Shown here: positions 5,464 to 32,200 of the stretch, one piece after another
How positions within the stretch are numbered: position 1 is the first letter of the stretch
How the letters are laid out: every line of letters starts with the position of its first letter
From: an uncultured Rhodospirillales bacterium
GTDB lineage: Bacteria; Pseudomonadota; Alphaproteobacteria; RF32; CAG-239
Direction: 5' to 3'
Assembly (NCBI GenBank): GCA_902763185.1
Contig: CACWQT010000004.1
Span: 54,535 to 118,534, forward strand
DNA: 64,000 bases
The notes under the pieces: generated by a model
Databases searched by the model: none
What the model saw: the letters and a program-made list of their open reading frames with translations, nothing else
Told to the model about the DNA's origin: nothing
Position numbers and translations under genes: made by a program

Positions 5464-5796
5464 ATGTTTAATTGGAAAAAAATGTTAGTATTGTGCACAT
5501 TGGCACTTGTATTAACGGTAGCTTTTACTGATGTTGCTTCTGCAGATGTTATGGCTACAGCTTTAAATAAAGTAAACAATGTATTCCAAAAGACCAGAAG
5601 AATTGTGTTCGTTTTGGGTGCATTTGGTTTGATTGGTCTTGCGTTCCAAGCAATTTTTGGTAAGGTAAAATGGTCTTGGTTTGCAGGTCTTGCTGTAGGT
5701 TTGGCAATTGTTGCAGCAGCTCAAGCAGTTGTTCAATATGCTGCAGGTCAATCTCAAGACGGTGTAACGGTTACCGATACTTTTGATGAAAACTAA
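5464..5796 (+). CDS. virB2: VirB2/TrbC-family pilin paralog 1
   Basis: 110 aa with signal peptide ...AFTDVASA-DV, then two hydrophobic helices around a basic loop, with the pilin-family motif AIFGKVKWSWFAGLAVGLAIVAAAQAVV. RBS is AGGAGAA. Confidence 0.75.
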   Translation: MFNWKKMLVLCTLALVLTVAFTDVASADVMATALNKVNNVFQKTRRIVFVLGAFGLIGLAFQAIFGKVKWSWFAGLAVGLAIVAAAQAVVQYAAGQSQDGVTVTDTFDEN

Positions 5797-6053: not shown

Positions 6054-6383
6054 ATGATGTTCGGACTGACTAAAAAAGAAACATATATCCTTTTAATCGC
6101 ATTAGCGGTAGTGATTTGTTTACCGACAGATGCTTTCGCGGCCTTTGAATCTTTAAGGGATTCTGGTAAGACAATATTTACAGGACTTCGCAAAGTTATT
6201 TACCCGGCATCAGCCATTGGCATTATTTGCGTTTGTATCGGTGGGTTCTTTGGTAATATTAACTGGAAATGGCTGTTAACACTTGTTGTTGGGTTAATAG
6301 TTATTGCCGGTTGCGCAGGTCTGGTGCAATTATTTACTGGTAACTCTGGAGATATTCCGGCGGATACGTTAAGTGGAGCATAA
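6054..6383 (+). CDS. virB2: VirB2/TrbC-family pilin paralog 2
   Basis: 109 aa with signal peptide ...PTDAFA-AF. Motif FFGNINWKWLLTLVVGLIVIAGCAGLVQLF. RBS is AGGAGGGA. Confidence 0.7.
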   Translation: MMFGLTKKETYILLIALAVVICLPTDAFAAFESLRDSGKTIFTGLRKVIYPASAIGIICVCIGGFFGNINWKWLLTLVVGLIVIAGCAGLVQLFTGNSGDIPADTLSGA

Positions 6384-6394: not shown

Positions 6395-6757
6395 ATGACA
6401 AAGACAAATAGAATAATTGTTTTAAGTATAATGGTACTTCTTTTAAGTTCTCTCGTTGTTATGCCAGCATATGCCGGTGCGGATACTATTTTTAAGGAAC
6501 TGGCCGAAAGAATAGGTACCTTTGCTTCTGGATTTAGAAAAATTGCTTTGGTTATGGGCGCATTTGGTTTGGTAATGTTTACCTTTATGGCAATCAGCGG
6601 TAAAATTAATTTTAAGCACCTCGGCTATATCGCAATTTGTCTTTTTATCCTGGGTGGTGTTGCCACATTTATTTCGCAGGATATCGTTGGAAATGCTGAA
6701 TTGCCCACAACATTCAATGAAGCTAATGACACATATATGAGTTCTGCTGGTATTTAA
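6395..6757 (+). CDS. virB2: VirB2/TrbC-family pilin paralog 3
   Basis: 120 aa with signal peptide ...VMPAYA-GA. Motif AISGKINFKHLGYIAICLFILGGVATFI. RBS is AAGGAG, 11 nt after the paralog 2 stop. Confidence 0.65.
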   Translation: MTKTNRIIVLSIMVLLLSSLVVMPAYAGADTIFKELAERIGTFASGFRKIALVMGAFGLVMFTFMAISGKINFKHLGYIAICLFILGGVATFISQDIVGNAELPTTFNEANDTYMSSAGI

Positions 6758-6838: not shown

Positions 6839-7129
6839 ATGAGAGATATAATTCTAAAAGCCGTAGCCAATCCGCCCAAACTTTTTTGGGCGCCGATTTT
6901 GCCTGCTGCATTAAATGGCGGCTTGCAAATGCCATTTATGTTTATTGCAATGGCATTTTGGAACGCAAATCCATTGATTTTTGTGATAACCATAATTTTA
7001 GGACATATGATTATGGTTGGCTTAGGAGCCAGAGATCCACATCTTTCCGGAATGATACAAGCCTTTGGCGCAACCAATGTTGTATCCACAAATCTATATA
7101 GAGTGAAAGGACATAAATTTGAACCTTGA
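6839..7129 (+). CDS. virB3: VirB3-like protein
   Basis: 96 aa with two hydrophobic segments and the VirB3-type pattern LFWAPILPAALNGGLQM...ILGHMIMVGLGARDPHLSGMIQAF. It lies immediately upstream of and overlapping virB4. Confidence 0.7.
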   Translation: MRDIILKAVANPPKLFWAPILPAALNGGLQMPFMFIAMAFWNANPLIFVITIILGHMIMVGLGARDPHLSGMIQAFGATNVVSTNLYRVKGHKFEP

Positions 7130-9569
7130 TTTTGACTTTTATACTCTGTTTTTAACGGGCCTAAAGAGCATAGATGCCGTAGTTGCAACTTTTGGTATTA
7201 TTGCCGCTGCGGCAATAGCTATTTCTTTAGTTTCTAAAATCGGCACATGGGTTTTGCCACAACCAAGAGAATCACGGGTGGCGGATTTTCTGCCTTTCAA
7301 AAATTTATTATCTGATGGAGCAACGATTCGCTGTGATAACGGCACCTATGTTCGGGTATTCCAAATAGAAGGTGTAGACTTAACTTCAGCCCGCGAAGAA
7401 ACAGTTTTATCAATGTTTGAAGCAAGAAAAGCTTGGGTAGATAATATGGCAGATATGCAGGTAACCTGCCGCATTATTACGATTCGTGAGCGTGCACCGG
7501 TAGAAGGTAATAAAAGCGATTTTGGCAATAAGTGGCTGAAAATTGTAGATGATACATGGCGTGCGAATTTAAGTCGTGTTTATAAAAATGATCACTATTT
7601 GATTATTTCGGTAGAAGACCGTAAAGATGCCATTAAGGACTTAAACTATGCAACACAATCGGTTATGGCAAACCTTAATGATTATGGTGTTAAAGCTATG
7701 CATGAAGATGATGACACGCCGCCGGAGCGTAGTCCGTTCTATCCGTTTGTTCGTGTCTTAAATCCAATCAGCAAGCCGACACCTAAAATACGAAACGCAG
7801 AAGGTTTTCAATTAAAAGAGCTTTTAACTGCAGATGGAATACATTTTACCGGAGAAGAGGGGGTAATTAAATTCTTTTCAGGTAATAAAGAAAAATATGC
7901 CATAGCAATGGGAATACGCAATTCCGGTGATTATATGGATGAAAGCATGATTTCAAGTTTGTTGGCCATAGATTGTGAAATCACAGTGTTACATAATATT
8001 CATCCGATATTTAAGCCAAAAGCACGTATGATATTGGTGCAACAACAAAGAATGGCAGGACTTACAAGTTTTTCCGGTGATGTTGTCGGACAATATAGTG
8101 AGGCTTTAGCTGCAATTGAAGATAGTGATGCGGATCACCAGTCGTTAGTAGAATATTCAATGAGCTTTATTCTTAAAGGTGATAGCCTGAAAGAGGTGGA
8201 ATTCGGTGAAAGCGAAGTTCAAAGAATTTGCCGTTTGTTCAGCGTGACACCGGTTCGTGAAAATTGGATTGCGCAAGCGACATTTTTTAATCAATTTCCG
8301 GGGTTTGATACTTGCGGACGCACATATTTCTATCTTTCAAGAATTGTAACTTTGGCAGTGGCCTTTGAACAATTATCAACTGGTTTACCGAGAAGTGACT
8401 GGGGTGAGGGCGCTATTACCGTATTCCGCACCATGAGTGGATCACCCTATCGATTCCAATTCCATATTTCTGCTGCTGAATCTGCCGTGGCTCACTGTTG
8501 TATTGTTGGTCCGACCGGTCAAGGTAAAACGACTTTACTAACGTTCTTAGCTGGGCAGGCAATGCGTCATGGTGATCTAAAGGTTTATTTCTTTGACCGT
8601 CACCGTGGTGCTGAAATCTTCACGCACATGGTAAAAGGAAAATATGTCGGATTTAGCGGTGAACGTAAAAATGTGTCCTTAAATCCGTTTGATACGCGAG
8701 ACACAATGAGCAATCGCGCCTTTTTGCGTAACTGGTTAAAAGCAATTACCTTGGCCGGAGATGCTCTATCAGAACGAGAGGCAGCCCGAGCTGTAACAAC
8801 GGCATTTGATTACTTAAAACCGGAAGAACGCGTATTAAGTAACTTATATAAAAGCTGTTTTTCGCCAACAGGAACAATGCGTCGTGAACTGTTTCGTTGG
8901 GTAAACCCGGATCAGTATGGCAACATCTTTAATGCCGAACATGATAGCCTGGATTTAAGTTCCAATCGATTCGTTGCCTTTGATTTCACAGAGATCTTTG
9001 ATGATGATACTTTGGCAGCGGCATCAATTAGTTATATTATGCACCGCATTAATGCTGAAAGTACGGATACAGGTAATCCTGCGTTGGTGATGATTGATGA
9101 AACAGCGCCGATGTTAAAGCATGAAATGTTCCGTGATGCCTTTATTAAAGGTTTACAAGAAGGACGTAAAAAACGTCAGGCGTATCTTTGCGCCTTCCAA
9201 CAACCAAATATTATAGATACATTAGGAGTTGGTGATGCAGTGCGCGGTCAATGTAAAACCATGATTTTCTTCCGCAATACACAAGCAACGCCTGAATCTT
9301 ATGAAAAATGGAATTTAACCGCCAGTGAATACGATTTTATTAGCGGTAAATCATTCCGTGATTGCCCGTATGCCATATTATTAAAACGGCCGGATGCTGA
9401 TGACGGTAAAGGCGAGTCAGTTGTTTTGGATGTTAATTTAAGTGGTCTTGGACCTTATCTTAAATTATACAACTCCGGCATTAAAAATGTATTGCTTGTT
9501 GACAGCCTAGTAAAAGAGTTCGGCGAAGACGGCTTTGTAACCAAGTATTTGGATGGAATGGGCGGATAG
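7119..9569 (+). CDS. virB4: VirB4/TrbE-family ATPase
   Basis: 816 aa with Walker A GPTGQGKTT and Walker B-like ALVMIDETAPML. The N-terminal region shows the typical ...DGATIRCDNGTYVRVFQIEGVDLTS. The TTG start overlaps the virB3 end by 11 nt. Confidence 0.9.
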   Translation: MNLDFDFYTLFLTGLKSIDAVVATFGIIAAAAIAISLVSKIGTWVLPQPRESRVADFLPFKNLLSDGATIRCDNGTYVRVFQIEGVDLTSAREETVLSMFEARKAWVDNMADMQVTCRIITIRERAPVEGNKSDFGNKWLKIVDDTWRANLSRVYKNDHYLIISVEDRKDAIKDLNYATQSVMANLNDYGVKAMHEDDDTPPERSPFYPFVRVLNPISKPTPKIRNAEGFQLKELLTADGIHFTGEEGVIKFFSGNKEKYAIAMGIRNSGDYMDESMISSLLAIDCEITVLHNIHPIFKPKARMILVQQQRMAGLTSFSGDVVGQYSEALAAIEDSDADHQSLVEYSMSFILKGDSLKEVEFGESEVQRICRLFSVTPVRENWIAQATFFNQFPGFDTCGRTYFYLSRIVTLAVAFEQLSTGLPRSDWGEGAITVFRTMSGSPYRFQFHISAAESAVAHCCIVGPTGQGKTTLLTFLAGQAMRHGDLKVYFFDRHRGAEIFTHMVKGKYVGFSGERKNVSLNPFDTRDTMSNRAFLRNWLKAITLAGDALSEREAARAVTTAFDYLKPEERVLSNLYKSCFSPTGTMRRELFRWVNPDQYGNIFNAEHDSLDLSSNRFVAFDFTEIFDDDTLAAASISYIMHRINAESTDTGNPALVMIDETAPMLKHEMFRDAFIKGLQEGRKKRQAYLCAFQQPNIIDTLGVGDAVRGQCKTMIFFRNTQATPESYEKWNLTASEYDFISGKSFRDCPYAILLKRPDADDGKGESVVLDVNLSGLGPYLKLYNSGIKNVLLVDSLVKEFGEDGFVTKYLDGMGG

Positions 9570-9652: not shown

Positions 9653-10627
9653 ATGAAAAAATGTAAATTAGGCACAATAATTGCTTGTTGTGGGGTGCTT
9701 TTTTTATGCAATACGACAAACGCTATAGTAGTATTAGATCCCGGACAAATGATTCCAGTTCCAAAAGAGATTAGTAATGGCATTACAAAATTTGGTGAAA
9801 TGAAAAGTGCTTTAACAAATCTTAAAGAAAATCTCTCTGCCATCGGTGATAAAGTTAATAGCATTTCTGAGTTTAATAAAGACGCATCCAAAGATAACGG
9901 AAAATGTAAAAACGCTGCTACAGCAGCAAATGATAGAGTAATGAACAATATTAAAAGTATTGCTGTGGCTCAAAGTGGTATAGCGAACATATTAAAAATT
10001 GCTCAATCTGCCAAAGAAAATCTGGCAGATGGGATAGTGCTTCAGACAGAGGAGCTTATAAATATTGCAACTGCTGAAAATAATGCAGAAATTAAGGCAA
10101 ATATCGCAGCTAATTTTGAAAATGTCAAAGAACTGAGTTCCCAGTTAACTGAAAATGTAAATGAAGCTTTTGATACTGCATTAAATACAGTTAATCAGAA
10201 TGCCCAAAAAAGTCACGAAGCACTGACTAAACTACGCAAAGTTGCTATGTTTGAAGAGAAGTTGAACGCCGAAGAAAGGGATAGTTGGCGCACAAATGAT
10301 TTAAATAATCGTGAACAGGCTGTTTCTGATGAAGGTATAGGTATGATAGAAGTAGCACACGAACAATATAATAGGGAATACAAAGAAAAATTTTCTGATG
10401 AGCTGAATAATTATCAAAAAATAGTTCTAGCATACGCAGACGGTAATGTCGATAAAGAAGATGTTATCAAAGCAGGCGAACAGTTTAAAATTGCAGTGGC
10501 AAATATCAATACAGCCTTGAACGAAGATAAACGTGCAATCTACGAGCAAAATGCTATTGGCTTACAACACGAAGTGGAAAGCGTAACCCAAAATATTATT
10601 CAACGCTTTGAGGTTCGTCAAAGTTAA
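9653..10627 (+). CDS. Secreted helical protein, VirB5/TrbJ-like N-terminus (paralog A)
   Basis: 324 aa with signal peptide ...CNTTNA-IVVLDPGQMIPVPKEISNGITKFGEMKSALTNLKENL. The hydrophobic-hydrophobic-D-P start followed by a long helix is as in TrbJ/VirB5. The remainder is predicted helical or coiled coil. The C-terminal YADGNVDKEDVIKAGEQFKIAVANINTAL is paralogous to YYAGKTTKEEMIAAGKAFKEKIAATNVSL in the 11171 gene. Confidence 0.45.
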   Translation: MKKCKLGTIIACCGVLFLCNTTNAIVVLDPGQMIPVPKEISNGITKFGEMKSALTNLKENLSAIGDKVNSISEFNKDASKDNGKCKNAATAANDRVMNNIKSIAVAQSGIANILKIAQSAKENLADGIVLQTEELINIATAENNAEIKANIAANFENVKELSSQLTENVNEAFDTALNTVNQNAQKSHEALTKLRKVAMFEEKLNAEERDSWRTNDLNNREQAVSDEGIGMIEVAHEQYNREYKEKFSDELNNYQKIVLAYADGNVDKEDVIKAGEQFKIAVANINTALNEDKRAIYEQNAIGLQHEVESVTQNIIQRFEVRQS

Positions 10628-10661
10628 GCGCTGGGGAAATAGATTATTAGGGAGGGTTGAG

Positions 10662-11093
10662 ATGAAAATAAAACTACATATTAAAAAATTTTTAGCAGTA
10701 ATGTTATTAACTTGTAGTTTGGTAGTGCCAAAGCCTGCACATGCCTTTGTTTGGCCGGCTATTGCTCCGGCAGAGATTGGCCTTTTTGTAAACAATGTTA
10801 TTACGGCACTAAGTGTAATTGCAACTGATAATGCAAAAATTCAAGGATATATAGCCACAATTCAGGCAATCGGTGATCAGGTAAGTATGGTTTGTAAATA
10901 TGCCCAAGATATCGGGGATGCCATAAACAGCATAGAAGATAGCGTGGAGCGTCTGGGCAGAGTAACAAGAGAAGCTAATGAATATGTAGCAATAACCATG
11001 GAAACATCCGTTGATGATTTAGCAAACGTAAATACAGAAAATAATCAAATGGCGGATAATTTGGTAAATGCTGTAGAGAAGGCGATGAAGTAA
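10662..11093 (+). CDS. Small secreted helical protein, VirB5/TrbJ-like (paralog B)
   Basis: The ORF is open from 10608, but the likely start is ATG 10662 after GGGAGGG. Signal peptide ...PKPAHA-FVWPAIAPAEIGLFVNNVITALSVIATDNAKIQGYIATIQAIGDQ. Confidence 0.4.
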   Translation: MKIKLHIKKFLAVMLLTCSLVVPKPAHAFVWPAIAPAEIGLFVNNVITALSVIATDNAKIQGYIATIQAIGDQVSMVCKYAQDIGDAINSIEDSVERLGRVTREANEYVAITMETSVDDLANVNTENNQMADNLVNAVEKAMK

Positions 11094-11170: not shown

Positions 11171-13105
11171 ATGAATATGCTAAAATCAATTTTCTTAAGT
11201 TTGGTAAGTATACTATGTATAAACAACGTATATGCCATAGATGCTGCAATATCCCAACAAACCGATGAAGAAAATATCCAAGAAATAATTGTTCGAGCCA
11301 AAAGCGAAAATGAAATTCGTGACAAAGAAATTTTAGCAGTATTAGAAAAAGCTGATACTACAATAACCGAAACATTAAATTCAGTACAAACATCATTAGA
11401 TGTCGTGGAAAAAACTGTATTTGCCACAGGAAGGCTGGGAGCACCAGAACAGGACGTTGTTACAAAAGAAGTAAATCAGGTAAAACAGGAATTTGCAGAT
11501 CTCAGAGATGAAACATCAAAAATTATTGCAGAGATGCGCGATAACTATGCCAAAGAAAGTTCAAAAGTTTTAAGAGCCTATGATGAATATAGTTTGGCAA
11601 TTAGTGATTATTATGCAGGTAAAACAACAAAAGAAGAGATGATAGCAGCAGGAAAAGCTTTCAAAGAAAAAATTGCCGCAACAAATGTAAGCCTAGATAA
11701 GCAAAGACTGGATACTCTAAAAAAACTGACACAAGAGATTTCAGTCAAAACCAAAGATTTACAAGAGGATATCTTAAATAAAATTTCTAATAGCAGAGAA
11801 TATTCCGATGAAGACGAAGAGGAAGATAAAACATCATTCTTAAAAACAACAGATGGTGTTCACTATGTATATAACTATCATACCCAAAACGAACATATTT
11901 ATCTTAAAAGTCAATATTCAACAGAAACAGATGGCAACTTCTTAATGTCAACAGAACTTGTTTGTGAGGATTTAGATATTACAAAATTAGAGGAAAGCGC
12001 AAGTGAGGTTGAAAAATTTCGTGATTGCGTAACCAGAGCCAAAACAGAAAAAGAATATTTTGCCATTAAAGGGATAGCCGGTTGCAGTGCAAGTAATTTG
12101 CACGGATGTGATCCTTTTAAGGAAAAGCTGTATGAACCATATAAAAATAAAGGTGTTTATAAACATATTTTAGAGGACTATGACGCAGCTAATGTAGCAA
12201 ATATTGCTAAAACCAAACAATATGCACATTCTTGGCAGGGGAAATATGACGAAAGCACTGGAGAATGTAAAGAGGGAACTCTATGCGAGTTTTCGAATAA
12301 AGTTCGTGATGGAACCATCAGCAACGCCAACGATGCAACAAAATTCTTAGCAAAAGTAGAATTGGAAGCCGCTAAATTTTGGAGCTTTTTAAGGCGCGTA
12401 GATGCATTACATCGTTCTAAGAAGGCAGTTAATTATTTTACACCAATGCAGACATTATATTTGGATGGTAGAGATGATGGTAGACAGGAAAGTCCGTATG
12501 TAGATGCTACAGCTGCCGCATCAGAACGTCCTGGAGTAGTTAAGGTGGAAGATAAAGACCAAGATGTAGCGCCGAACGTATTGCTATATGTATGCAAAAT
12601 AAAGGCTGAAGATGTTTCTATGGATCCGGAAGATGCCGGAAATGAAAGCAAAAAAGAAGAAGCGGAAAAAAAGATTGTTAAATGTCTAAAGACTTATGCT
12701 AAATGGGTAGATAAAGGAACAGACAAGGATCAGCTTTCAGCCGGAGAAGCCAGCCAAGTTAATGATAAAAAGAAATTATGGAAAGAAAAAGAAATCGGCG
12801 CAGCAACGGATAGCATGTTCAAAAATTTAACAGTTGCTGCTATTAATCTATATAAATCAAGCTTGGATTATAAAGAAGAGCCGCCGGAGGATGGGATTAA
12901 TATAGTTTCGTTGGATAAAGGCTTAAGTGAAAAAGCAACTCAAGTAATGGATGGCTATGCTGCTGGCGCCAAAATTAACTATTATACAACAAATCAAATT
13001 TTAAGCGTTGTAGATGCAGATGCTCTGGAATTACAAACAGAAATTATTCAGAACTTAAATGAAATGGGATACAATTTCTTTCAAATTGAAGAGGGAGGAA
13101 ACTAA
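11171..13105 (+). CDS. Secreted coiled-coil protein, paralogous to 9653 product (paralog C)
   Basis: 644 aa with signal peptide ...INNVYA-ID. It has no internal hydrophobic helices. The N-terminal third aligns by eye with the 9653 product. The Cys-containing middle has no recognisable family. Confidence 0.4.
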   Translation: MNMLKSIFLSLVSILCINNVYAIDAAISQQTDEENIQEIIVRAKSENEIRDKEILAVLEKADTTITETLNSVQTSLDVVEKTVFATGRLGAPEQDVVTKEVNQVKQEFADLRDETSKIIAEMRDNYAKESSKVLRAYDEYSLAISDYYAGKTTKEEMIAAGKAFKEKIAATNVSLDKQRLDTLKKLTQEISVKTKDLQEDILNKISNSREYSDEDEEEDKTSFLKTTDGVHYVYNYHTQNEHIYLKSQYSTETDGNFLMSTELVCEDLDITKLEESASEVEKFRDCVTRAKTEKEYFAIKGIAGCSASNLHGCDPFKEKLYEPYKNKGVYKHILEDYDAANVANIAKTKQYAHSWQGKYDESTGECKEGTLCEFSNKVRDGTISNANDATKFLAKVELEAAKFWSFLRRVDALHRSKKAVNYFTPMQTLYLDGRDDGRQESPYVDATAAASERPGVVKVEDKDQDVAPNVLLYVCKIKAEDVSMDPEDAGNESKKEEAEKKIVKCLKTYAKWVDKGTDKDQLSAGEASQVNDKKKLWKEKEIGAATDSMFKNLTVAAINLYKSSLDYKEEPPEDGINIVSLDKGLSEKATQVMDGYAAGAKINYYTTNQILSVVDADALELQTEIIQNLNEMGYNFFQIEEGGN

Positions 13106-13107
13106 TA

Positions 13108-13851
13108 ATGAGGAAAAGAATAAGCATATTGTTACTCCTTTTTTGTTTAGTATATACGCGACCGGCATATGCCGTGTTTGACTTTATTTCTGCCATAGAA
13201 GATGGTATTAACCTAGCTATAGATATTCAAAACAAAGTAGAGCAAATACAGAACAAAATTGCGGAAATAAAAAAACGTATTACACAAGGTTTTGCTCTCG
13301 CTGGTGGATGCATTCAAAATCCGATGCAATGTGATGTGAATGCATTAGAGAACTTTATTGGGGATGGCCTCGGTGTTGTTAGCAAAACTCTTGATGGAGT
13401 ATATGTTATGAAACAAGCCAAACTAATGGCAAAAGAAAACTTAAATGAACAATGCACCTCCTGTTTAGAAGATGAAGTAAAAGATACTTATATCTATAAA
13501 AGAGGTGAAGGCGATGATATGAAAAGGTTGAGTGAAAATCGCGAAAATATTAATGGTATCGTTATTAATGACACGAATGTTTTGTTTGCTAAAGCGATAA
13601 CCACACGTCATGCTATTATCATGGAAGACGCCTCTATTTATCAAACAAATTTTGGTGATAATTCAGGAGCGTCAGATCCGGAAAATCCTAAAAATCCGGA
13701 AAATATACAAAAGATTTTGCGGGCACAAACTTTTGTATCCATTTATACACAAAGTCGCTTGGCGCGTATATTGGAACTCCGTGCACATATGGTCGGCGCA
13801 GAAGCAACCGTAGAGTTAACAAAGCAAGGTAAAGATAAAGGTGAAGAATAG
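13108..13851 (+). CDS. Secreted helical protein, VirB5/TrbJ-like (paralog D)
   Basis: 247 aa with signal peptide ...TRPAYA-VFDFISAIEDGINLAIDIQNKVEQIQNKIAEIKKRITQG. The size and N-terminal pattern are the closest to canonical VirB5/TrbJ in this set. RBS is GGGAGGA. Confidence 0.5.
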   Translation: MRKRISILLLLFCLVYTRPAYAVFDFISAIEDGINLAIDIQNKVEQIQNKIAEIKKRITQGFALAGGCIQNPMQCDVNALENFIGDGLGVVSKTLDGVYVMKQAKLMAKENLNEQCTSCLEDEVKDTYIYKRGEGDDMKRLSENRENINGIVINDTNVLFAKAITTRHAIIMEDASIYQTNFGDNSGASDPENPKNPENIQKILRAQTFVSIYTQSRLARILELRAHMVGAEATVELTKQGKDKGEE

Positions 13852-13852
13852 C

Positions 13853-15184
13853 ATGAAAAAAATATTATCAGTCATAATATTATCAGCATTATTAGTAACA
13901 GGAAGTCCAAAACCTGCCCATGCCATTATTATTGATCCGGGGCAAATTGCTGCCAAAATTGCAGAAATAGTGCAAGACATTGCCGATGCTGTGGCGACAG
14001 GTATTGAAGAAGTAAACAAAGTTAAGCAAATGGCAGCACAAGGGTTCAATTATCAAGCTTTGATAAATAAGGCAACGGAATTTGCAACTAAATATGCAAT
14101 TGACTATGTTACACAAAAGATTTTAACAAAGCGCTTCAAAGAAGTTGAAGGCGATACCAATAAGCAAAACAAGAAAGTCTTGGAAAAAGATAAAGAAAAT
14201 TATAAAGAGGCAACAGAAGCCTTATATGATAAGCAACTGGAGATTTTAGAAGGGGAAATTTCAAAAACTAATAGTGCAAAAGCAGAAGCGCAATCCAAAA
14301 TGAATGAGGCTAAAAGCAAAGAAGCATCAGCAAAAGCGGCTTATGAGGCTGAAACAAGCCCTGAAGCAAAGAATCACAAGCTGATGGAATATATGAAGTG
14401 GTCAGCAGAAGCTGAAAAATGGACCAACGATTACTTTGAACTTGATAAAAAGAGCATTGAACTTCAAAAACAGAAAGAATATCTGCTGCAAGAAAAAAAT
14501 AAAATTGCATCAGAAGATGAGCAATATAAGGCTCTTGAGGAACGTGTTAAGGCCATGGAAGAAGATAAGAACGAGTTGGTATCTATTGATCCGAAAGAAG
14601 CCGAATGGGATGAAGTTGATGTAGAAGATTTTGATATAAATAAATACTATGATAAATTTGTTGAACAATATTTCTTTGATCCCAAAGAGTTGGGAGATAA
14701 CGGTAAAGAGGGACTAACTGCTCATCAAAGCCGTATGGATAGAATTATGCGCCAAAGGCGGTATTTGGTTGTTAATAGTGCCGCACATTTAATGCAGGTG
14801 GCTGCTTCAATGCGTCGCTCATTACCGGTTGAGTATAAAAAGAACAAAGAGATGTTTACATCTATCGGGCAAGATGAAGGCGAATTAGCAGCAATGAATG
14901 TATATTCTGCGACCAGAGTTGAAACAGCCAGAGCTTTATTGATGTATGCCAAATTGCTTTGCGCTAAACTGCAGTATGAAACAGCGCGTGATTTAGTCAA
15001 GTCAGATGTTCAAAGAGACAAGACTGAAAATGCAGATTTTAACTTAGAAAAATATATATTAGATTCCTCAGATGTTGAAGCCGTGGTGAAGAAGTTCACA
15101 TATGGTGAAAACGCAGAAGCAGAAAAATCAAATTTGAATTCGGATTATTACAACAATGCTAATGAAGCATTTAGGAATTATTAA
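13853..15184 (+). CDS. Secreted coiled-coil protein, VirB5/TrbJ-like N-terminus (paralog E)
   Basis: The ORF is open from GTG 13841, but the likely start is ATG 13853 (MKKILSVIILS). Signal peptide ...PKPAHA-IIIDPGQIAAKIAEIVQDIADAVATGIEEVNKVKQMAAQG. A long K/E-rich coiled coil follows. Confidence 0.45.
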   Translation: MKKILSVIILSALLVTGSPKPAHAIIIDPGQIAAKIAEIVQDIADAVATGIEEVNKVKQMAAQGFNYQALINKATEFATKYAIDYVTQKILTKRFKEVEGDTNKQNKKVLEKDKENYKEATEALYDKQLEILEGEISKTNSAKAEAQSKMNEAKSKEASAKAAYEAETSPEAKNHKLMEYMKWSAEAEKWTNDYFELDKKSIELQKQKEYLLQEKNKIASEDEQYKALEERVKAMEEDKNELVSIDPKEAEWDEVDVEDFDINKYYDKFVEQYFFDPKELGDNGKEGLTAHQSRMDRIMRQRRYLVVNSAAHLMQVAASMRRSLPVEYKKNKEMFTSIGQDEGELAAMNVYSATRVETARALLMYAKLLCAKLQYETARDLVKSDVQRDKTENADFNLEKYILDSSDVEAVVKKFTYGENAEAEKSNLNSDYYNNANEAFRNY

Positions 15185-15201
15185 TTAAGGAGTGATGAGC
15201 A

Positions 15202-18200
15202 ATGACAAAGATACAGGGATTATTAAGAAGCATACTGATTTTATGTTTGTTTCTTTCTACTAACATAAAAAAAGCGGAAGCATTTGGATGGCTTCCGCCA
15301 CTCCCACCGGAGCCTGTTGTAGACTTTCCGGATGAAGGCGGAAAAGTTGTATCAGTTGCCCAGGCAGCCTATCAAAAGGTTCAATCTATTGATTCCAAAC
15401 TTGCCACACTCCGCTTGGATGCAATCAAAAAAGGTGACCTTTTTGCGCTTAAAGAATTGCTTAGCACAGCCAATGCTCTGACTGAAGGTGGTAAAAAGAA
15501 ATCTCCTAATAAAGGCACCGTTCAGCCCAATTCTGACCTTAAAATAACCAATGATAATAAAGGTTTGCTGGATGAAGAAGCTTTCTTTAATGCTCATAAC
15601 GCTCTATTCTTTACTTATCCGTCAATAGCTGATTATCAAAGTATGTTTCCTGAGGGAGAGGCGGATTATTCATTTATGCGCACAATTTATGAGGGAAAAG
15701 CCGCAAAATATCGTCAAGATATGTTAATAGATACATATTTGACCGCACGTGTTATGGAAGATTACTTAGTAACAGTTGAACGGACACTTAATCGTTTAGA
15801 TAAATGCCAAAAAGAACCGGACCCTGAAAAGTGCACATTTTTTGGCATGACTATGGCTAAGGTCGAGTCAAAAGAAGAAGCGCCCCAACCAGGGGATAAT
15901 AACAATCCTGGGCAGATGGGGGCTGCAACAAATGCGTATATTGTAACTATGGTGTATGACAGATTAATGCGTATTGTGGAAGATTTAACAGCAACAGAAG
16001 CACTATATCAATCAGCCAAACAAACAGACATGGCAGATCCGGTTTATCCGAAAGCAAATGAAAGCAACGCCGCAGATTATGTACCACAAAAATATCACTT
16101 TGCATATAGCAAAACACATGAGCATTCTTATGCAAAAGGTTTGATAAATAGTGATGGTTTTAATCGCTTAAAGTGTAATCCGGGTGAAAAAGGTTGTCCG
16201 GCAAGTAACAATGAGGCTAAAGCCAAAAAACTGATGGATGACACGGAGATCCTGACAAAGTTGCAACCTTTAGATAATATTTTAACCGAGGCAATCACAA
16301 TACACAACATAAAGAACCAGTTGCCTTCTTATAAAGTGCAATATCGTAAATATTTGCGTGCCATAGAGAACCACAAGCGAGCACTGCAAGCAGTTTATGA
16401 TAGTGACCAATGTATTGTAAAATTCTTTATGCGTCACGGTGCAGATACAGTTATTGACCCGATAACACATCAAGAAAGAAAGAGAAATAAAGAGGAATGG
16501 GATGGCTTCTGGGGAACACCTAAAGGCAGAGGCGAACAACCGACTGAAGACGGTCACGTGTTCAAATATGAAAAAGATTACAATAACTACGAAAGTCGTG
16601 GTGGTTATTCCTTAGAATTAATTAAGGAATATCAGGCACGCACAGAAAACACTATTTTAGGCACTTCAAGCGAGTGCGAGAACTATTATGCGGAAGGACA
16701 ATGTGCTGATGGTTATAAATCAGATACAGACCATCCGTGTGCCGCAGATAAAACATTATATCCTTGTGTATTAGAAAATGCCGTTGAATTTGATGCCAAC
16801 ACCCCTTCATCCGTTAATACTGACAATATGCAGGATTCGCTAGACGGTGGTGTAGAAAAACTGGCAGACAATCAAAAAGGCTCATTAAGTTTTGATGAAA
16901 AAGATTATGTTGCCAGCAACACAGATATTGAAAACATTGTTGACGATAACCGTGTTCGCACAGAAACACCATGGCGTATCGGTGCAGAAAAAGTAGTAGA
17001 AATGACCGGTAGAACTGACGGCTTTAAGATTTTATTCTATCCGTGGAATGACCAGAAAGGGTTCCAAGTTGAATATTTGCGTCAAAAATACCACAATATT
17101 GGCAATATTATAAAAACCACGGATAAAGGTTGGGCATCTTTCAAGATTACACAATCGTTATCTGAAAATCCGGATCCTAATGCTGCTGAAGATGCAGAAG
17201 AAGCCAAATTACAGCAAGCAATTAAATCGCTTGTTAATGGTGGACGGACTTGTTTGTCAGTAGATGATGCTGTAGTAAAGGCAAGAAACGAGATATGCTC
17301 TGGTTATCCTTCAGATCAATACGAATGTAATGTAGAAGGAGATGCCTCTACGGGTATAATTCATTACGAAATCATAACCAAAGGTCAAGAGGCTACATTT
17401 ACCAGCAGAGAAGAAGTTACCGAGGGAACGGATACTTTGGAAGAAGATGAAACTCTTGAAGAAGCTGAAGAAAGAATCTGCGGTGATTATGAGGATGAAG
17501 AAGATATTACCTGTAGTGTAGAAGAGGGTGAGGAAGAAGGCGAAATCTCTTATACAATAACCGAAACCATCAAAGAGGAGGCTACGGCGGCAGTTGCAGG
17601 TGGTGAAGTTGTTGCATCAGGCGATAAGAAACAGTATGCAAGTGAAACCGGACCGCAATGTGAATATACAAATTCAGGTACATTCGATTTTGAAATAACT
17701 CCGTCAGGTGGTATGGGCTGTAATGATACATGGGATTTAACCAAAGGTTTCTTAGTTAAGAGATATCTGCGGTGTCTTGTTGCTGAAGATGCAGATAAAT
17801 TTTATAGCGATGCTAAAGGTAAAGGGAGAAGAGTCGCACGCAATAAATTAGCTGAGGTGATGTGGACACGTAAAGGCACAGATATTGTTATGAAAGAAAC
17901 TGTAAATGATTATAATCTTAAAATTGAAGCCTTAGAAAGCAAATTAGCTAAAACGAAAGAGCTAATGACATCTTATAACAAGTTGGTAGATTCGGCGATT
18001 GAAGAAAAGAATCTTATCCAAAAGCTTAAAGATAAGTCAGAAAAACGTATCAAGAGTATTGAAGATGAAATAGCTAGTATTACTGAGCGAGAAGCTAAAG
18101 TAAATATACAGAGCGATAAATGCGCAATGGATTATCGCAAAGCTAAACTCAATCATGAAATGAATTGTATAAAAAGCGGCACTGGTAACTTTGCTTGTCC

Positions 18201-27900: not shown

Positions 27901-30900
27901 TAGTGGCAAAGTTTTAGGATCGGCCGGAAATTATCGTCGTTTGGCTTACGATGAAAACGGCAAAGTGATTGGCTATGTAGACAAAGACGGTAATGTGCGA
28001 GACTTTAATGGTAATTTGATTGGCAAGATGTTGCCGGATGGAACAATTGTAGATAAAAACGGTCGGGTTATTGGTAAAGCCGGAGATTTTAAGCAAGTTG
28101 CAGTTGATAAAGACGGTAATGTGATTGGTTATATAGATGAAAATGGTCGGGTTATCGGGGCTAATAGCAAACTTGTTGGCTTTATAGATAAAAACGGTAA
28201 TGTGATTAAAGCCGGGGATAAAGTTATCGGTAAAACCTGTATCAAGAAAAAGACCATAGTAAACGAGCGTGGAAAAATCATTGGTTATTTGGATAAAGGC
28301 GGCGTTGTTGAAAATTTCCGTGGAAAAGCCATTGGGCAAAATCGCAATGGCACAGTTTTTGATAGCAATAACATTGTTATCGGCAAAACAAGCGTTGCGC
28401 TGAATATGATCAAATTAGGAGATGATATTGTCGGCTATGTTGACGGCAAAAGCTATGCTCGCGGACAGGATAATGAGATTTTTGGTATTGTCGATATGAG
28501 CGGTAATGTTCTTTCTACCAAAAATAATAACATTATCGGCAAAATTGATGTAGGCAAAAAAAGCTTACGCAATCGTAATGACGAAATTATCGGCTATGCC
28601 AAAGAAAATAATTTTGCTTATGATAAAAATAACAAGTTAATTGGTTATGTAAATGATAAAGGAGAAGTTGTTGCTGCTGGTGAAAGATTATGTTCAGCTT
28701 GTAAAGCTGCAAAATTGGCTTATGATAAAGACGGTAATATAATAGGTTATGTAGATGAGAATGGTAATGTTATTGGTCCAGACGGGAAAATTGTCGGCTA
28801 TGTGGACAAAGATGGTAATGTTATTGGAACAAATGGTAAAATTATCGGTCACGTTGGTGAGGGTCGCCGTTTAGCTTATGATAAAAATGGTAAAGTTATC
28901 GGATACATCGAGCCAGATGGCACAGTGCGTGATTTTAAAGGAAATGTTATCGGGCATTTAGATGAAGAAGGCAATATTAGAGATAAAGACGGTAATATTA
29001 TCGGTTATGCAGGTGAAGAACGCCTCTTGGCTTATGACAAAGATGGTAAGGTGATTGGTTATGTTGATGAAAAAGGGCGTGTTATAGATGGTGACGGCAA
29101 TGTTATCGGAGTGGTTGATAAAGACGGTAATATTATCGGTACTGATGGTGAAGTTATTGGCAAAGTAGGGGATGCTAAGAATCTAGTCTATGATGAGAAA
29201 GGCAATGTAATTGGCTATGTAGATGATGACGGGGCGGTTAAAGATTTTAACGGTAATGTGATTGGTTATGTAGATGAAAATGGCAAAGTGCTGAATAATA
29301 CAGGAGAAGTTATTGGCTCTGTTGGCAAAATGGGGCGTCTTGCCTATGATGAAGATGGTAATGTGATTGGCTATGTAGATGAAAATGGCAACGTTTATGA
29401 CTTTAATGGTCGACTAATTGGCAAAGCCTTGCCTGATGGTTCAATTGCAGATGAAAATGGCAATATGATTGGTAAAGTCGGAGATGAGTTGGTGGGGCTG
29501 GCTGTTGATGAAAACGGTAATGTTATCGGTTACATAGGTTCGGACGGTAAAGTTTACGGTGAAAATGGTGAACTGATCGGCTATTTAGATGATGAAGGTA
29601 ATGTTATTGGTCTAACCGGAGATGTTTTAGGCAAAGCTAGTGCCATGAAGAGATTGGCTTATGATGAAAATGGTAATGTGATTGGCTATGTGGATGATGA
29701 TGGAACGGTTCGAGATTTTGATGGCAATGTTATCGGATATTTAGGTGAAGACGGTAAAACAATTCATGATTTGAACGGTAAAGTTATCGGTTATGCCGGA
29801 GATTTGGCACGTGTTGTTTTAGATGAAGACGGCAATGTTATCGGTTATGTTGATGAAAAAGGACGTGTTATCGGTAAAGACGGTGAAATCATAGGTGTTT
29901 TAGGAGATGATGGAACAGTTTATGCAACATCAGGTGAAGTTATCGGTAAAGTTGCTAATGCAACCAATGCAAAGTTAGGAGTTGTTAAACGTCGGGCTGT
30001 CTTAGATAAAGATGGCAATGTTATCGGTTATATAGATGAAAACGGTATACCACGTGATTTTAATGGCAATATATTGGGAACATTAAGAGAAGATGGAACG
30101 ATTGTTGATAAAGATGGCAACGTCATCGGTCGTGTCGGTAATGAAATAGAGTATACAGTTGATGAAACCGGCAAAATTATCGGCGTTGTCGGAGGATATT
30201 CCAATTTAGTTGTTGATAAAAATGGTAAAGTTATCGGATATGTTGGTAAAGATGGCAAAGTCTATGGTCTTGACGGCGTGATGATTGGCTATATAGATGA
30301 AAACGGTAATGCCATAACTTCTCGCGGAATAAAAATTGGTGCCGTCGTTAAGAAAGATATGTTAACTGTTTCCCCTCAAGGCAAAAGCTTAGGATTGATT
30401 AATAATCGAGGCGAAGTATTGAATACCGAAGAAGAAATCATTGGTAAAATATTGCCCAATGGGCTTATTAAAGCGGTTGAAAGCGATAAAATTATTGGAA
30501 AAACAGTTATTGGAGGTATGGCGTTAGGTTGGGATTGCAAACAATTGGGATATGTTGAAAAAGATTTAAGTATTAAGAATAACAATAAAGAAACAGACTA
30601 TAAAATGCTGTTTGACCGCAGTATCGTTGATAAAAATGGCAAACATGTCGGTGATGTTGTCAAAATCGGCTGGGTGAGAGATAATAAGTGCAATTTGATA
30701 GGTAAAGTAGACTATGACGGTAGCGTGAAAAATGAAAAAGGTGAATATATCGGATGCTCTAATCCTGATGGGCGAGTGATAAGTAAAAATAACGGTAAAA
30801 TTATCGGTAAAGTCTATGAACCTGGATTTGCATTATATTATAACGGAAAATATATGGGATTACTTAGTCCGGATGGAAGCATCAGATCTGGTAAAACATT

Positions 30901-32200
30901 GGTGGGCTGTGCTAATTTAGACAATGAAGTGTTAAACAGAGACGGCTTTGTTATCGGATATATTATGGATAAAACAGCGGTATATGATAAAGACGGAAAA
31001 TTTGTAGATAATATGCATCAAAATAATTATAATGAACCTTTAATTCCTAATACCAAGATACTGTTTAACAAACTGTTGGTTAACTCCAAAAAAGAGATTA
31101 AAGGAATTATTCTGCCCGAAAAGAATATTATAATTGGCGCTAATGGTAATGTTATAGGGCATTTATTTGCTGATGGTAAAATATATAATCAAAAGGGCAT
31201 AGCGGTAGATAATATAAATTCCGATGGTAATTCATTTTATGCGGGACAGGCTGGGAGAATATTGCCCAAAGGCAATGTGGTTGATTTCTTTGGTGACATC
31301 ATAGGATTTATAGATGATAATGCGGATGTCATAGATGAAACAGGCAATGTTTTAGGTCATATTGATGCAAAAGGACGCATGTTCACTAAAGACGGTGAAT
31401 ACAAAGGAGGTATTGTAAAAACCGGTGCTGGTATTGGATATGACGGTTCTTATTTAGGTTATGTAAGTAAGAGCGGAAAGGTTGTTGATGTAGATGGTAA
31501 TATCACCGGTATAATAAGTTCCGATGGTCATATACTGGATAATAATAAGCAGATTGTTGGAGAAGTTATCTCAGAAGACTTTGTGATTGACATTCAAGGC
31601 AATATTAAAGGCTATGTTAATGTATTAGGGGATGTTATAGATTTGGATGATAAAATTTCCGGAGCTATTTTACCGGGGGGAACATCTGGCAAAAATTATA
31701 GTGTTATTAGAAACGGAGCAATAGTCGATTATTCGGGATCAATTATCGGACAAGTTTCTGCCGGTGGTGAAATATTATCCGTAGCAAATAAGCAAATTGG
31801 GCGCATACTGGGATCTAATAAAGCAATAAACGATAAAGGGGCACTAATGGGAGAACTGGTTGAAGGCGATATTGTTATCAATGAGCAAGATAAAGTAGTT
31901 GGCTTTGTAAATATGGACGGAAAAGTGGTTAATAAAGAAAAAGCAGTCATCGGAAAAGTCATTTCGGCAAATTTAGTTGTAGATAACAATGGAAAAATTA
32001 TGGGACATACATATAAAATAGGTGCTAATATACTAAGCAATGACGGAAAATTTATTGGTCGCTTAGCGCCAAACGGGGAAGTTTTAAGCACCACTAACGG
32101 CAAAATAGGATATTTAAAAAGCAATGGCACATATATCAATACTAAAAATAAAGTTTCCGGCTATGTATTGGATGAAGTAGCACAAAATCGGAGGAACTAG
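24941..32200 (+). CDS. Giant (2419 aa) single-pass membrane protein built of D-x-x-G-x-h-I-G short repeats, unknown family
   Basis: Its ATG overlaps the virB9 stop (ATGA at 24941-24944). It has a TM helix LIVLTGIIFGVLFLFGLLII, an acidic linker and a Cys-containing beta-rich module (CRGKDLRGNETCNVLISWIPHLPGN). From ~25600 to the stop the repeats are continuous, e.g. LAYDKDGNVIGYVDENGNVRDFNGNLIGK. Confidence 0.8.
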   Translation: MSENTRFEEYEKKTRKLIVLTGIIFGVLFLFGLLIISSDGEDYNPEEAAPEFTEDESMTATVEDTEDMSIETEDENISEKKKPITIIPSQINMNEFVLGVDTQNQTVLTIGTDGTESIHIVRVDLVEETEDGFIPTDKCRGKDLRGNETCNVLISWIPHLPGNVQNNFKIIWYESRLGPQNAKSEIVSIRGNAIYPEDNYSKYQGEGNASTTIQPSGMRKGAHRLAIGPNGEIIGYIDEAGNVYDKEGNLIGRVNEEGLVVDENGNVIGVAQNMRLAYDKDGNLMGYVKTDGSVVDFNGNVIGKALPDGTIVDENGKVIGHAVEAGFVYDENGKITGRVLPDGTVVDINDPNKVIGHLNEKGEVVDEKGNVIGKVTSSGEIVVDEDGNVLGVVMPDNSVVDKDGNIVGYVGEDGTVYKTSAEKIGANGDSHKLVYDADGKAIGYIDENGNVVKFSDMEGKGNGISAHLAYDKDGNVIGTISPDGTVRDFKGNIIGQVDKDGNIRDKNGNIIGHAGGMARLAYDKDGNVIGTIDPDGTVRDLKGNIIGHVDKDGNIRDKDGNIIGRAGGMAQLAYDKDGNVIGTISPDGTVRDFKGNIIGQVGKDGNIRDKNGNIIGRAGGMAQLAYDKNGNVIGAIDPDGAVRDFKGNIIGHVDKDGNIRDKDGNTIGTTNTNKLANTKGGKIIGKVGSSRRLALDKNGNVIGYIESDGTVKDFNGNIIGRLDKDGNIRDKDGNIIGKAGSYAKLALDKDGNVIGYVDEKGRVFDALGKQIGYVDENGNIVSLDGGAGADKKRLAIGSNGEVIGYIDDDGNVYDFEGNLIGKVDKDGNIKDKNGNIIGKAGEYKTLAYDKDGKVIGYIDDNGRVIGKDSKVIGYVDENGMIIGTTGKVIGKAGKSGRIAYNNDKKFIGYVETDGRVIACGGAEIGKMNKNGDIYNGNKKIGTAGEVRELAFGANNVFIGYIDDKKRVVDCDGKVIAVVDKNGNIIASSGKVLGSAGNYRRLAYDENGKVIGYVDKDGNVRDFNGNLIGKMLPDGTIVDKNGRVIGKAGDFKQVAVDKDGNVIGYIDENGRVIGANSKLVGFIDKNGNVIKAGDKVIGKTCIKKKTIVNERGKIIGYLDKGGVVENFRGKAIGQNRNGTVFDSNNIVIGKTSVALNMIKLGDDIVGYVDGKSYARGQDNEIFGIVDMSGNVLSTKNNNIIGKIDVGKKSLRNRNDEIIGYAKENNFAYDKNNKLIGYVNDKGEVVAAGERLCSACKAAKLAYDKDGNIIGYVDENGNVIGPDGKIVGYVDKDGNVIGTNGKIIGHVGEGRRLAYDKNGKVIGYIEPDGTVRDFKGNVIGHLDEEGNIRDKDGNIIGYAGEERLLAYDKDGKVIGYVDEKGRVIDGDGNVIGVVDKDGNIIGTDGEVIGKVGDAKNLVYDEKGNVIGYVDDDGAVKDFNGNVIGYVDENGKVLNNTGEVIGSVGKMGRLAYDEDGNVIGYVDENGNVYDFNGRLIGKALPDGSIADENGNMIGKVGDELVGLAVDENGNVIGYIGSDGKVYGENGELIGYLDDEGNVIGLTGDVLGKASAMKRLAYDENGNVIGYVDDDGTVRDFDGNVIGYLGEDGKTIHDLNGKVIGYAGDLARVVLDEDGNVIGYVDEKGRVIGKDGEIIGVLGDDGTVYATSGEVIGKVANATNAKLGVVKRRAVLDKDGNVIGYIDENGIPRDFNGNILGTLREDGTIVDKDGNVIGRVGNEIEYTVDETGKIIGVVGGYSNLVVDKNGKVIGYVGKDGKVYGLDGVMIGYIDENGNAITSRGIKIGAVVKKDMLTVSPQGKSLGLINNRGEVLNTEEEIIGKILPNGLIKAVESDKIIGKTVIGGMALGWDCKQLGYVEKDLSIKNNNKETDYKMLFDRSIVDKNGKHVGDVVKIGWVRDNKCNLIGKVDYDGSVKNEKGEYIGCSNPDGRVISKNNGKIIGKVYEPGFALYYNGKYMGLLSPDGSIRSGKTLVGCANLDNEVLNRDGFVIGYIMDKTAVYDKDGKFVDNMHQNNYNEPLIPNTKILFNKLLVNSKKEIKGIILPEKNIIIGANGNVIGHLFADGKIYNQKGIAVDNINSDGNSFYAGQAGRILPKGNVVDFFGDIIGFIDDNADVIDETGNVLGHIDAKGRMFTKDGEYKGGIVKTGAGIGYDGSYLGYVSKSGKVVDVDGNITGIISSDGHILDNNKQIVGEVISEDFVIDIQGNIKGYVNVLGDVIDLDDKISGAILPGGTSGKNYSVIRNGAIVDYSGSIIGQVSAGGEILSVANKQIGRILGSNKAINDKGALMGELVEGDIVINEQDKVVGFVNMDGKVVNKEKAVIGKVISANLVVDNNGKIMGHTYKIGANILSNDGKFIGRLAPNGEVLSTTNGKIGYLKSNGTYINTKNKVSGYVLDEVAQNRRN
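25600..32170 (+). repeat. Protein-level array of ~17-20-aa repeats, often grouped as ~52-aa super-repeats
   Basis: Read directly from the translation. The recurring unit is h-x-h-D-x-x-G-x-h-I-G-x, and the super-repeat is LAYDKDGNVIGxIxPDGTVRDFKGNIIGxVDKDGNIRDKxGNIIGxAGxxxx. The boundaries are approximate. Confidence 0.8.
26342..26965 (+). repeat. Near-identical in-frame DNA tandem repeats (156-bp units in an A-B-A'-B' arrangement, 312-bp period)
   Basis: Units start at 26342, 26498, 26654 and 26810. Unit 1 and unit 3 differ at one position (gac/ggc) over the first ~135 nt on manual comparison. Units 2 and 4 share long identical blocks, e.g. atcatcggtcatgtagataaagatggtaacatcagagataaagatggtaata. 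Confidence 0.85.

Follow-up and report, generated by a model that had tools for sequence, protein, structure and literature searches.

The locus considered here raises the question of what an exported protein of 1989 residues does in the middle of a type IV secretion system (T4SS) operon, in the slot that VirB6 occupies in canonical virB operons. The stretch analysed, referred to below as the window, comprises 64,000 nucleotides of contig CACWQT010000004.1 from an uncultured Rhodospirillales bacterium, and the protein, which we label GIANT, is encoded by the open reading frame (ORF) 15202..21171 on its forward strand; all coordinates are window positions unless another locus is named. Our proposal, drawn from sequence and structure models and put by us at about even chances, is that GIANT is an extracytoplasmic subunit, specific to this lineage, of a VirB-type T4SS encoded on the chromosome, and that it belongs to that machine's outward-facing module. 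Within the module it would most likely act as an exposed contact or adhesin subunit, a role favoured because GIANT is the fastest-evolving gene of the operon and because it carries a hypervariable insert that appears to be closed by a disulfide. Lineage-specific accessory subunits are a known feature of T4SSs, the Cag and Dot/Icm systems being examples.

The reading frame is that of a real gene. It starts with ATG, the stop codon of the preceding gene lying 17 nt earlier, and at the base composition of the window a run of 1989 open codons is expected by chance with a probability of ~1e-64; the longest open stretch in the five other frames across it is 111 codons, and its GC content per codon position is 0.51/0.36/0.31. 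GIANT is transcribed: contigs of two sheep gut metatranscriptomes span it and the adjoining genes at low coverage, the first pilin gene being highest (DNA carry-over is possible in such libraries). DNA of the window is also present in bovine and sheep gut metagenomes, which contain strains nearly identical to it. The features at the start of the gene, and the ORF itself, are:

15187..15192, forward strand: Shine-Dalgarno sequence AAGGAG, 9 nt before the GIANT ATG and 2 nt past the upstream stop

15202..21171, forward strand: GIANT ORF, with a mature protein of ~221 kDa and pI 4.9

15202..15282, forward strand: signal peptide (aa 1-27), from hydropathy and the conservation of A27 and F28, with putative cleavage between AEA and F

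A first-pass annotation, made from the letters of the window alone, had described GIANT as a Sec-dependent protein with a signal peptide ending in KKAEA-FGW and no transmembrane (TM) helices, and this description holds. The sole segment with a Kyte-Doolittle(19) score above 1.6 is aa 4-22, after which come KKAEA and then FGW; there is no second hydrophobic segment, the next best score being 0.86. A27 and F28 at the putative cleavage site are at least 90% conserved among 52 homologues. The site itself is putative, being based on hydropathy and conservation. A motif scan found no HExxH, Walker A, SLT-type (E-S...GLMQ-type), RGD or LPXTG motif in GIANT, so that the reported lack of a catalytic signature stands for HExxH, Walker A and SLT-type motifs; internal repeats were likewise looked for and none was found.

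GIANT has 37 cysteines, 36 of them in the mature part and mostly spaced 7-15 residues apart, and their covariation, scored over the 52 homologues, agrees with the earlier remark that many of them are paired. C404 and C1986 co-occur in 46/46 homologues, C684 and C820 in 43/43, C1209 and C1218 in 47/47, and C1636 and C1650 in 23/23 (phi 1.0 in each case), while C1860 and C1874 do so in 45 of 45-46 (phi 0.92); the count of mature cysteines is even in 44 of the 52. Cysteines are gained and lost in pairs, and this argues for an oxidising, extracytoplasmic location. Many disulfides, about 18, may thus staple the mature 221-kDa protein. Among them, a C404-C1986 bond would tie the C-terminal PYCPxY tail, which contains C1986, back to the helix of the N-terminal domain that contains C404, and a C684-C820 bond would close the hypervariable acidic insert. 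C404 is also replaced in all eight loci in which the tail reads PYAP or PYSP, and both residues of this pair are invariant in a distant subfamily of 18-21% identity. An intermolecular disulfide between C1986 and another protein of the operon was considered and rejected: no cysteine column in VirB2 to VirB9, in the secreted proteins o324 to o447 encoded upstream of GIANT or in the repeat protein encoded downstream tracks the loss of C1986, the sole exception being a signal-peptide position in o324. The covariation yields concrete, testable disulfide links, together with a testable topology.

The structure was modelled with AlphaFold2 from a 52-sequence alignment in two pieces, of which aa 861-1989 gave a usable model (pLDDT 76, pTM 0.54) and aa 28-880 a weaker one (pLDDT 62). 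The parts of the mature protein are:

15283..15426, forward strand: mature N-terminus (aa 28-75), highly conserved and proline-rich, then an amphipathic helix; low pLDDT

15574..16437, forward strand: N-terminal helical domain (aa 125-412), with cysteine pairs 202/211 and 325/332 and with C404, the putative partner of C1986

16438..16776, forward strand: small beta-rich cysteine module (aa 413-525), with C492/C501 and C513/C522

16912..17301, forward strand: conserved helical bundle (aa 571-700), with a PWNDQK motif

17251..17661, forward strand: hypervariable, indel-rich insert (aa 684-820), putatively closed by C684/C820, with an acidic tract (aa 734-793) and two beta-meanders

17836..18561, forward strand: long-helix region (aa 879-1120), with predicted helices 879-964, 970-992, 1035-1054 and 1078-1120; pLDDT 85-94

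18694..19401, forward strand: middle alpha/beta region (aa 1165-1400), with the pair C1209/C1218

19495..19836, forward strand: most conserved block of the family (aa 1432-1545), the first third of which (to aa 1474) has pLDDT below 50

19924..20331, forward strand: beta-rich domain (aa 1575-1710), with invariant C1581/C1615, clade-specific C1636/C1650 and an HLLADHG motif (aa 1652-1657)

20329..21138, forward strand: C-terminal helical bundle (aa 1710-1979), with cysteines 1776/1810 and the covarying 1860/1874

21127..21168, forward strand: conserved C-terminal tail MDNQSQxVPYCPxY, whose C1986 covaries perfectly with C404

Over aa 28-75 the family consensus is F..PPMPWDIEVDIPG, and the window protein has FGWLPPLPPEPVVDFPDEG; P32, P33, P35 and K48 are invariant in the family alignment, and D41 and P43 in a 20-sequence alignment of N-termini. 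We regard this stretch as a possible docking segment. The helical bundle that follows further on, aa 571-700, has W591, F612, W615, D617, Q618, Y625, K629 and N632 as invariant residues. The insert of aa 684-820 has a gap fraction of 0.4-0.64, the lowest conservation and the highest-but-one windowed dN/dS, and the acidic tract already pointed out in it holds 27 D/E per 60 residues. The block of aa 1432-1545 is marked by the motifs YFVxLPARG ... GRD ... PLLNLPPLREVFYF ... EYLPExWRYLLARPN ... YQQTFVER. Its beginning, aa 1432-1474, is conserved yet has no structure in the model, as is typical of segments that bind a partner, and may be one.

The long coiled coils that had been read from the sequence reappear in the models as helices, among them 879-964, 1078-1120 and, further on, 1289-1336, and the only matches in the PDB are to coiled coils. 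As modelled, aa 879-1120 probably form an antiparallel coiled-coil hairpin of ~13 nm, at the turn of which lies a variable cysteine cluster (aa 974-1024) with partly conserved apex cysteines. A Rad50-like zinc hook at this turn was rejected, the motif CPASC being CxxxC and the apex cysteines being found in only 19-36 of 52 homologues. The C-terminal 600 residues, which had been expected to be globular and free of recognisable motifs, are modelled as a mixed alpha/beta part and a helical bundle, mostly at pLDDT 70-90, and match no Pfam or NCBIfam family. We also rejected an outer-membrane beta-signal at the C-terminal aromatic residue, given that there is no alternating hydrophobic pattern and that many homologues have extra tails. 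Taken together, the models suggest that the N- and C-terminal parts make up a head from which the long hairpin (aa ~879-1120), with its cysteine-rich turn, would project.

GIANT belongs to a family for which neither a relative beyond this operon nor a matching fold could be detected. When 5.8 billion proteins were searched by word index, 60 homologues of 1131-2006 aa were returned, all of them proteins from metagenome-assembled genomes (MAGs) that are unnamed or called 'hypothetical protein [Alphaproteobacteria bacterium]' and lack Pfam domains. A profile of the C-terminal 565 aa, run exhaustively with HMMER against 1.84 billion representatives (E <= 0.001), found 172 relatives; judged by length and match position these are giants of 1250-2030 aa, in which the matched part has the same relative position, or fragments, and none lies in another domain context. 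Two distant ones were looked up, and both sit within the same T4SS operon context. In a shorter subfamily (~1380 aa, 18-28% identity) most of the cysteine-rich inserts are missing, and the N-terminal domain, the helical middle part, the conserved core and a YC tail at the C-terminus are retained. The traits of the family are all present in GIANT: AxA and F at the cleavage site followed by PPxP, the core with PPLREVFYF and WRYLLARPN, the PYCPxY tail, and the slot between secreted helical proteins and VirB8.

Comparisons with known families were negative throughout. Pfam (E <= 0.1) and NCBIfam scans of GIANT gave no family, and a Pfam scan of 27 family members (E <= 0.01) gave nothing consistent, two of the 27 bearing acquired beta-flower repeats. 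Sequence searches of the PDB with GIANT, a full-family profile and an N-terminal profile gave only weak coiled-coil matches, such as Rad50 and prefoldin. Foldseek found nothing below E = 0.1 in the PDB with either model or in BFVD with the C-terminal model, the queries being whole multi-domain models, from which a resemblance at the level of single domains could escape. Thus none of these routes gave homology to a characterised family unrelated to secretion, a finding that had been named at first pass as one that would speak against the reading. Literature searches found, within the library that they covered, no description of this T4SS or of the lineage.

The operon itself, in which GIANT had been placed from the start, has VirB2, VirB3 and VirB4 upstream of it and VirB8, VirB9, VirB10 and VirB11 downstream, and the T4SS genes of the window, including GIANT, form one co-directional operon:

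5464-5796, 6054-6383 and 6395-6757, forward strand: three VirB2/TrbC pilin paralogues

6839-7129 and 7119-9569, forward strand: VirB3-like gene and VirB4

9653-10627, 10608-11093 and 11171-13105, forward strand: VirB5-like secreted paralogues o324, o161 and o644

13108-13851 and 13841-15184, forward strand: secreted helical proteins o247 and o447, of no recognised family

21156-21950, 22093-22281 and 22303-23067, forward strand: VirB8a, VirB7-like lipoprotein and VirB8b

23085-24944 and 24941-32200, forward strand: VirB9/CagX and a 2419-aa beta-flower repeat protein

32202-36452 and 36512-37492, forward strand: VirB10/TrbI with beta-flower repeats, and VirB11

A species scan with one genome per GTDB species found the GIANT gene in 35 species, all of them uncultured Alphaproteobacteria of the gut or rumen, drawn from catalogues for deer, buffalo, cattle, mice and humans. 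In an ORF/BLAST survey the 35 genomes show one order, B2x3-B3-B4-o324-(o161)-o644-o247-o447-GIANT-B8-B7-B8-B9-repeat protein-B10, and the window and two distant subfamily loci have the same order as far as the loci extend. In every locus examined GIANT lies between the secreted helical proteins and VirB8, which supports our proposal. The suggestion that GIANT might be a novel structural component gains support from this invariant synteny. The operon adjoins engB, yidC, gpsA, recF, dnaN and dnaA (37499-46251); it is chromosomal and near the replication origin, rather than on a mobile element.

The sequences point to the o324 family as VirB5-like. Its top PDB sequence match is TrwJ of R388 (7o3v, E = 0.006), with TraC also listed, and four of 19 members match PF07996; o161 and o644 are o324 paralogues by hhalign (probability 97-99.5%). 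The N-termini of o247 and o447 have, after the signal peptide, hydrophobic residues and then Asp, and one o447 member has a weak match to the VirB5 family PF07996 (E = 0.007).

Further observations concern the rest of the operon and its surroundings. The small ORF 22093-22281 (forward strand) encodes a 62-aa lipoprotein with the lipobox ILAAC and an invariant CxC, lies between the VirB8 paralogues in 30 loci and is probably VirB7. In the VirB9/CagX homologue there is a long linker of low complexity, and its C-terminus weakly matches SPOR, a peptidoglycan-binding domain (E = 0.005, below the curated cut-off). The 2419-aa repeat protein has one N-terminal TM segment, and the VirB10/TrbI homologue is of 1416 aa, ~1000 of them in repeats; the repeats in both genes match PF21785, PF21784 and DUF3659 and have a very strong GC skew (0.36-0.44). 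The pair is a CagY-like expansion divided between two genes. In three genomes (loci L016, L020 and L027) the third VirB2 paralogue is matched by an ORF of 210-223 aa that has 5 hydrophobic segments; this is either an artefact of calling the start too far upstream or a fused or duplicated pilin. Divergent from the operon is a cluster at 1264-5195 (reverse strand), whose products are a secretin (PF00263), a lipoprotein with a TcpQ domain and a protein of 446 aa with a single TM segment and no Pfam match; it is possibly a type IVb/Tad-like pilus outer-membrane module just upstream of the T4SS.

The rate at which GIANT evolves sets it apart from the core of the machine. Mean identity to the window is 86% for VirB4, 77% for VirB7, 72% for VirB3, 67% for VirB9, 64% for the repeat protein and 61-63% for VirB8, as against 38% for o247, 34% for GIANT and o644, 33% for o447 and 26% for o324 in the secreted block. 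In the nearest relative GIANT is 67% identical, compared with 73-91% for o447, o247, o644 and VirB8, and in the next relative 42%, compared with 46-94% for all other genes. By the Nei-Gojobori method dN/dS is ~0.15 for GIANT and 0.04 for VirB8, rough values given that dS is saturated; under the same limit, windowed dN/dS is highest in aa 601-900 and dN peaks in aa 1201-1350. Purifying selection acts on GIANT, and the gene is functional; within the operon it nonetheless evolves fastest and is the least constrained. Such a pattern is expected of exposed, target-facing parts, and suggests that GIANT is one of them.

How GIANT would work can be proposed as follows. Together with the VirB5-like paralogues and o247/o447 it would form the outward-facing module of the machine, at a distal stalk, a pilus tip or the cell surface. 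Docking to the apparatus would use two conserved stretches of GIANT, the N-terminal peptide and the unstructured aa 1432-1474, while its hypervariable loops would contact the target cell. VirB5 itself is located at T-pilus tips and acts in host-cell recognition (PMC2653234). Two giant orthologues, P0014 and P0009, carry beta-flower units resembling the repeats of the VirB10 pair, placed ahead of the conserved core or at the C-terminus; the gain of such units by some orthologues hints at a compartment or ligand shared with the VirB10 pair.

Several points weigh against an outward-facing role. A folded, disulfide-bonded protein of 221 kDa would have to cross the outer membrane. The halves were modelled separately, the N-terminal one at pLDDT 62, and the head-plus-hairpin shape is not seen in one model. 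The losses of C404 and C1986 are confined to eight loci, apparently one clade, and possibly reflect a single event. The similarity of the N-terminus to the VirB5-like neighbour vanishes without the signal peptides. Finally, long helical proteins drift fast regardless of location, so that the rate argument is suggestive at most.

The comparison with VirB5 deserves a closer account, as the first-pass annotation saw the mature N-terminus of GIANT as loosely continuing the theme of the preceding proteins. Aligned with the o324 family by hhalign, the N-terminus gives 84-92% with signal peptides, the register placing PVVD/evDiP opposite PVfDf, and 12% once these are removed. When seven segments of GIANT were compared with five upstream secreted families by BLASTP and hhalign, only the N-terminus with its signal peptide matched, and BLASTP gave nothing significant. 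The shared theme thus survives weakly, and not in the mature sequence on its own; an N-terminal docking module common to GIANT and the VirB5-like proteins would be plausible. Like the VirB5/TraC/TrwJ/CagL class, GIANT is Sec-exported, helix-rich, fast-evolving, encoded just after VirB4 and presumed to face outwards, and it adjoins genuine VirB5-like paralogues, whose post-signal pattern (hydrophobic, Asp, amphipathic helix) its own resembles. Its conserved AxA-F site and paired cysteines point to the Sec signal and the periplasmic or extracellular location expected of a VirB5. However, VirB5 is a single domain of ~220 aa, made up of a bundle of three helices and a globular appendage, whereas GIANT is multi-domain, about nine times larger and has ~18 putative disulfides. 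No sequence or profile match was found between GIANT and PF07996, TraC (1R8I) or TrwJ (7O3V), and no VirB5 match by Foldseek.

Other known components offer looser parallels. TraN of F-type systems is a cysteine-rich, Sec-exported mating-pair stabilisation protein of ~600 aa with a variable tip thought to contact the partner cell, and by analogy GIANT may be likened to it as a cysteine-rich exported T4SS accessory. The system of GIANT is, however, P-type (VirB-like), TraN has no long coiled coil, and no TraN Pfam match was found in GIANT (E <= 0.1) or in the 27 members (E <= 0.01). The Cag T4SS of Helicobacter pylori has very large lineage-specific extracytoplasmic proteins and a repeat-expanded VirB10 (CagY), and the present system may be analogous in having the same two elements side by side; it shows no sequence or fold similarity to Cag, however, its repeats are of the beta-flower type, and GIANT itself has none. 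The C-terminal TrbI domain of VirB10/CagY proteins is absent from GIANT and present in ORF 32202-36452, and the SLT/lysozyme-like catalytic domain of VirB1 was not found in GIANT by Pfam, NCBIfam, Foldseek or motif search.

There are four other possible explanations. The one that survives best, although we consider it unlikely, is that GIANT is a periplasmic scaffold or spacer that braces or spaces the enlarged machine in the gap separating the inner-membrane complex from the outer-membrane complex of VirB7/9/10. A Sec signal without an anchor, a gene placed between VirB5-like genes and VirB8/VirB7, and a rigid helical hairpin of ~13 nm, if modelled correctly, would all suit a brace, as would the company of other oversized periplasmic parts (VirB10 with its ~1000 aa of repeats, the 2419-aa repeat protein, VirB9 with its weak SPOR match). 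However, GIANT evolves at roughly double the rate of each recognised core component in the periplasm, and a hypervariable acidic insert closed by a disulfide would be unexpected in an internal brace. Thus, between the pilus-tip adhesin and the periplasmic scaffold put forward at first pass, rate and insert tend to favour the exposed role.

A second explanation, slightly less probable than the scaffold and absent from the first-pass list, is that GIANT is a Sec-dependent substrate, folded and oxidised in the periplasm and then expelled by the T4SS as a large adhesin or toxin. There is a precedent in the Ptl system, which secretes without cell-cell contact (PMC2653234); like pertussis toxin, GIANT has a Sec signal, putative periplasmic disulfides and a gene linked to a T4SS operon, and its place as the fastest-evolving gene of that operon would fit a substrate too. 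No VirD4 coupling protein or relaxase was seen within the 64-kb window or the flanks examined, which again fits, although VirD4 may lie elsewhere in these fragmented MAGs. On the other hand, GIANT has no catalytic or toxin domain or motif, and in particular no ADP-ribosyltransferase or AB5 features, being a single 221-kDa chain. Unlike typical effector repertoires, it is present in one copy per locus examined, at a strictly fixed mid-operon place in all lineages. Furthermore, the Ptl system is without VirB5 (PMC2653234), whereas that of GIANT has VirB5-like genes.

Very improbable, in our judgement, is that GIANT is an envelope or surface protein that has no functional tie to the T4SS and shares only its transcript. 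It has no detectable homology to any T4SS component, as that explanation would have it, but none of the 172 relatives among 1.84 billion proteins was found outside the operon (two distant contexts having been looked up), the gene order is invariant, and just 17 nt separate GIANT from the upstream gene.

This leaves VirB6, whose slot GIANT occupies. Hallmarks of the Rickettsiales rvh system are an oversized VirB6 (674-1154 aa), duplicated VirB8, several VirB2, scattered gene islands and the lack of VirB5 (PMC2653234). The present T4SS resembles it in having duplicated VirB8, several VirB2, genes spread over islands and an apparently oversized VirB6 encoded apart, and differs in having VirB5-like genes. 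RvhB6 proteins are polytopic membrane proteins, whereas GIANT, though oversized and in or near the VirB6 slot, has no TM helix: where a VirB6/TrbL protein has at least 5, its only hydrophobic segment is the signal peptide. No polytopic protein is encoded between VirB4 and VirB8 in any surveyed locus. On the same contig, however, starting ~6.4 kb past the window end, there is a VirB6-like gene (L040:17719-20886, reverse strand, window-equivalent ~70361-73528). Its product of 1055 aa has a signal peptide, ~7 TM segments and a long variable C-terminal extension; its only Pfam match is TrbL/VirB6 at E = 0.011, below the curated cut-off, and a precomputed PF04610 annotation is present on 5/57 of its homologues. 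Several of these homologues are encoded on contigs whose lengths equal exactly those of contigs with a giant gene. From its sequence, this polytopic protein is likely the true oversized VirB6 of the organism. The gene, found also at L041:7312-10488, lies in an island of ~10 genes without Pfam matches plus one HTH regulator, which may be a second T4SS island, and some of its homologues bear beta-flower repeats. Since a separate polytopic VirB6/TrbL-like gene exists, GIANT is therefore no VirB6 substitute. That GIANT is a VirB6 equivalent, or a detached VirB6 extension, is effectively refuted by this gene, by the lack of TM helices beyond the signal peptide, by the lack of a PF04610 match in GIANT or 27 family members, and by a profile comparison in which GIANT showed no similarity to the extension at the C-terminus of the VirB6-like protein, in spite of the canonical position and the oversized VirB6 of Rickettsiales, and as the first-pass annotation had anticipated.

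A bolder version of the outward-facing role, which we hold to be doubtful though worth stating, is that the six fast-evolving Sec-exported proteins (three VirB5-like proteins, o247, o447 and GIANT) build an extracellular organelle unseen in studied T4SSs. GIANT would be its disulfide-locked head with a coiled-coil spike of ~13 nm, and hypervariable, disulfide-closed loops would set its target-cell specificity. If true, this would point to a contact-dependent lifestyle, be it epibiotic, predatory or host- or protist-associated.

Structural detail on T4SSs is limited to a few model machines. The system described here is conserved and chromosomal in a common gut and rumen alphaproteobacterial lineage without a cultured member, and it unites Rickettsiales-like traits with VirB5-like genes, a repeat-expanded VirB10 and a 221-kDa subunit that has neither a detectable homologue nor a fold match. 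If GIANT is the contact element, it would be a natural target for metaproteomics, cryo-electron tomography and expression studies, and the best starting point for learning what these bacteria inject or attach to.

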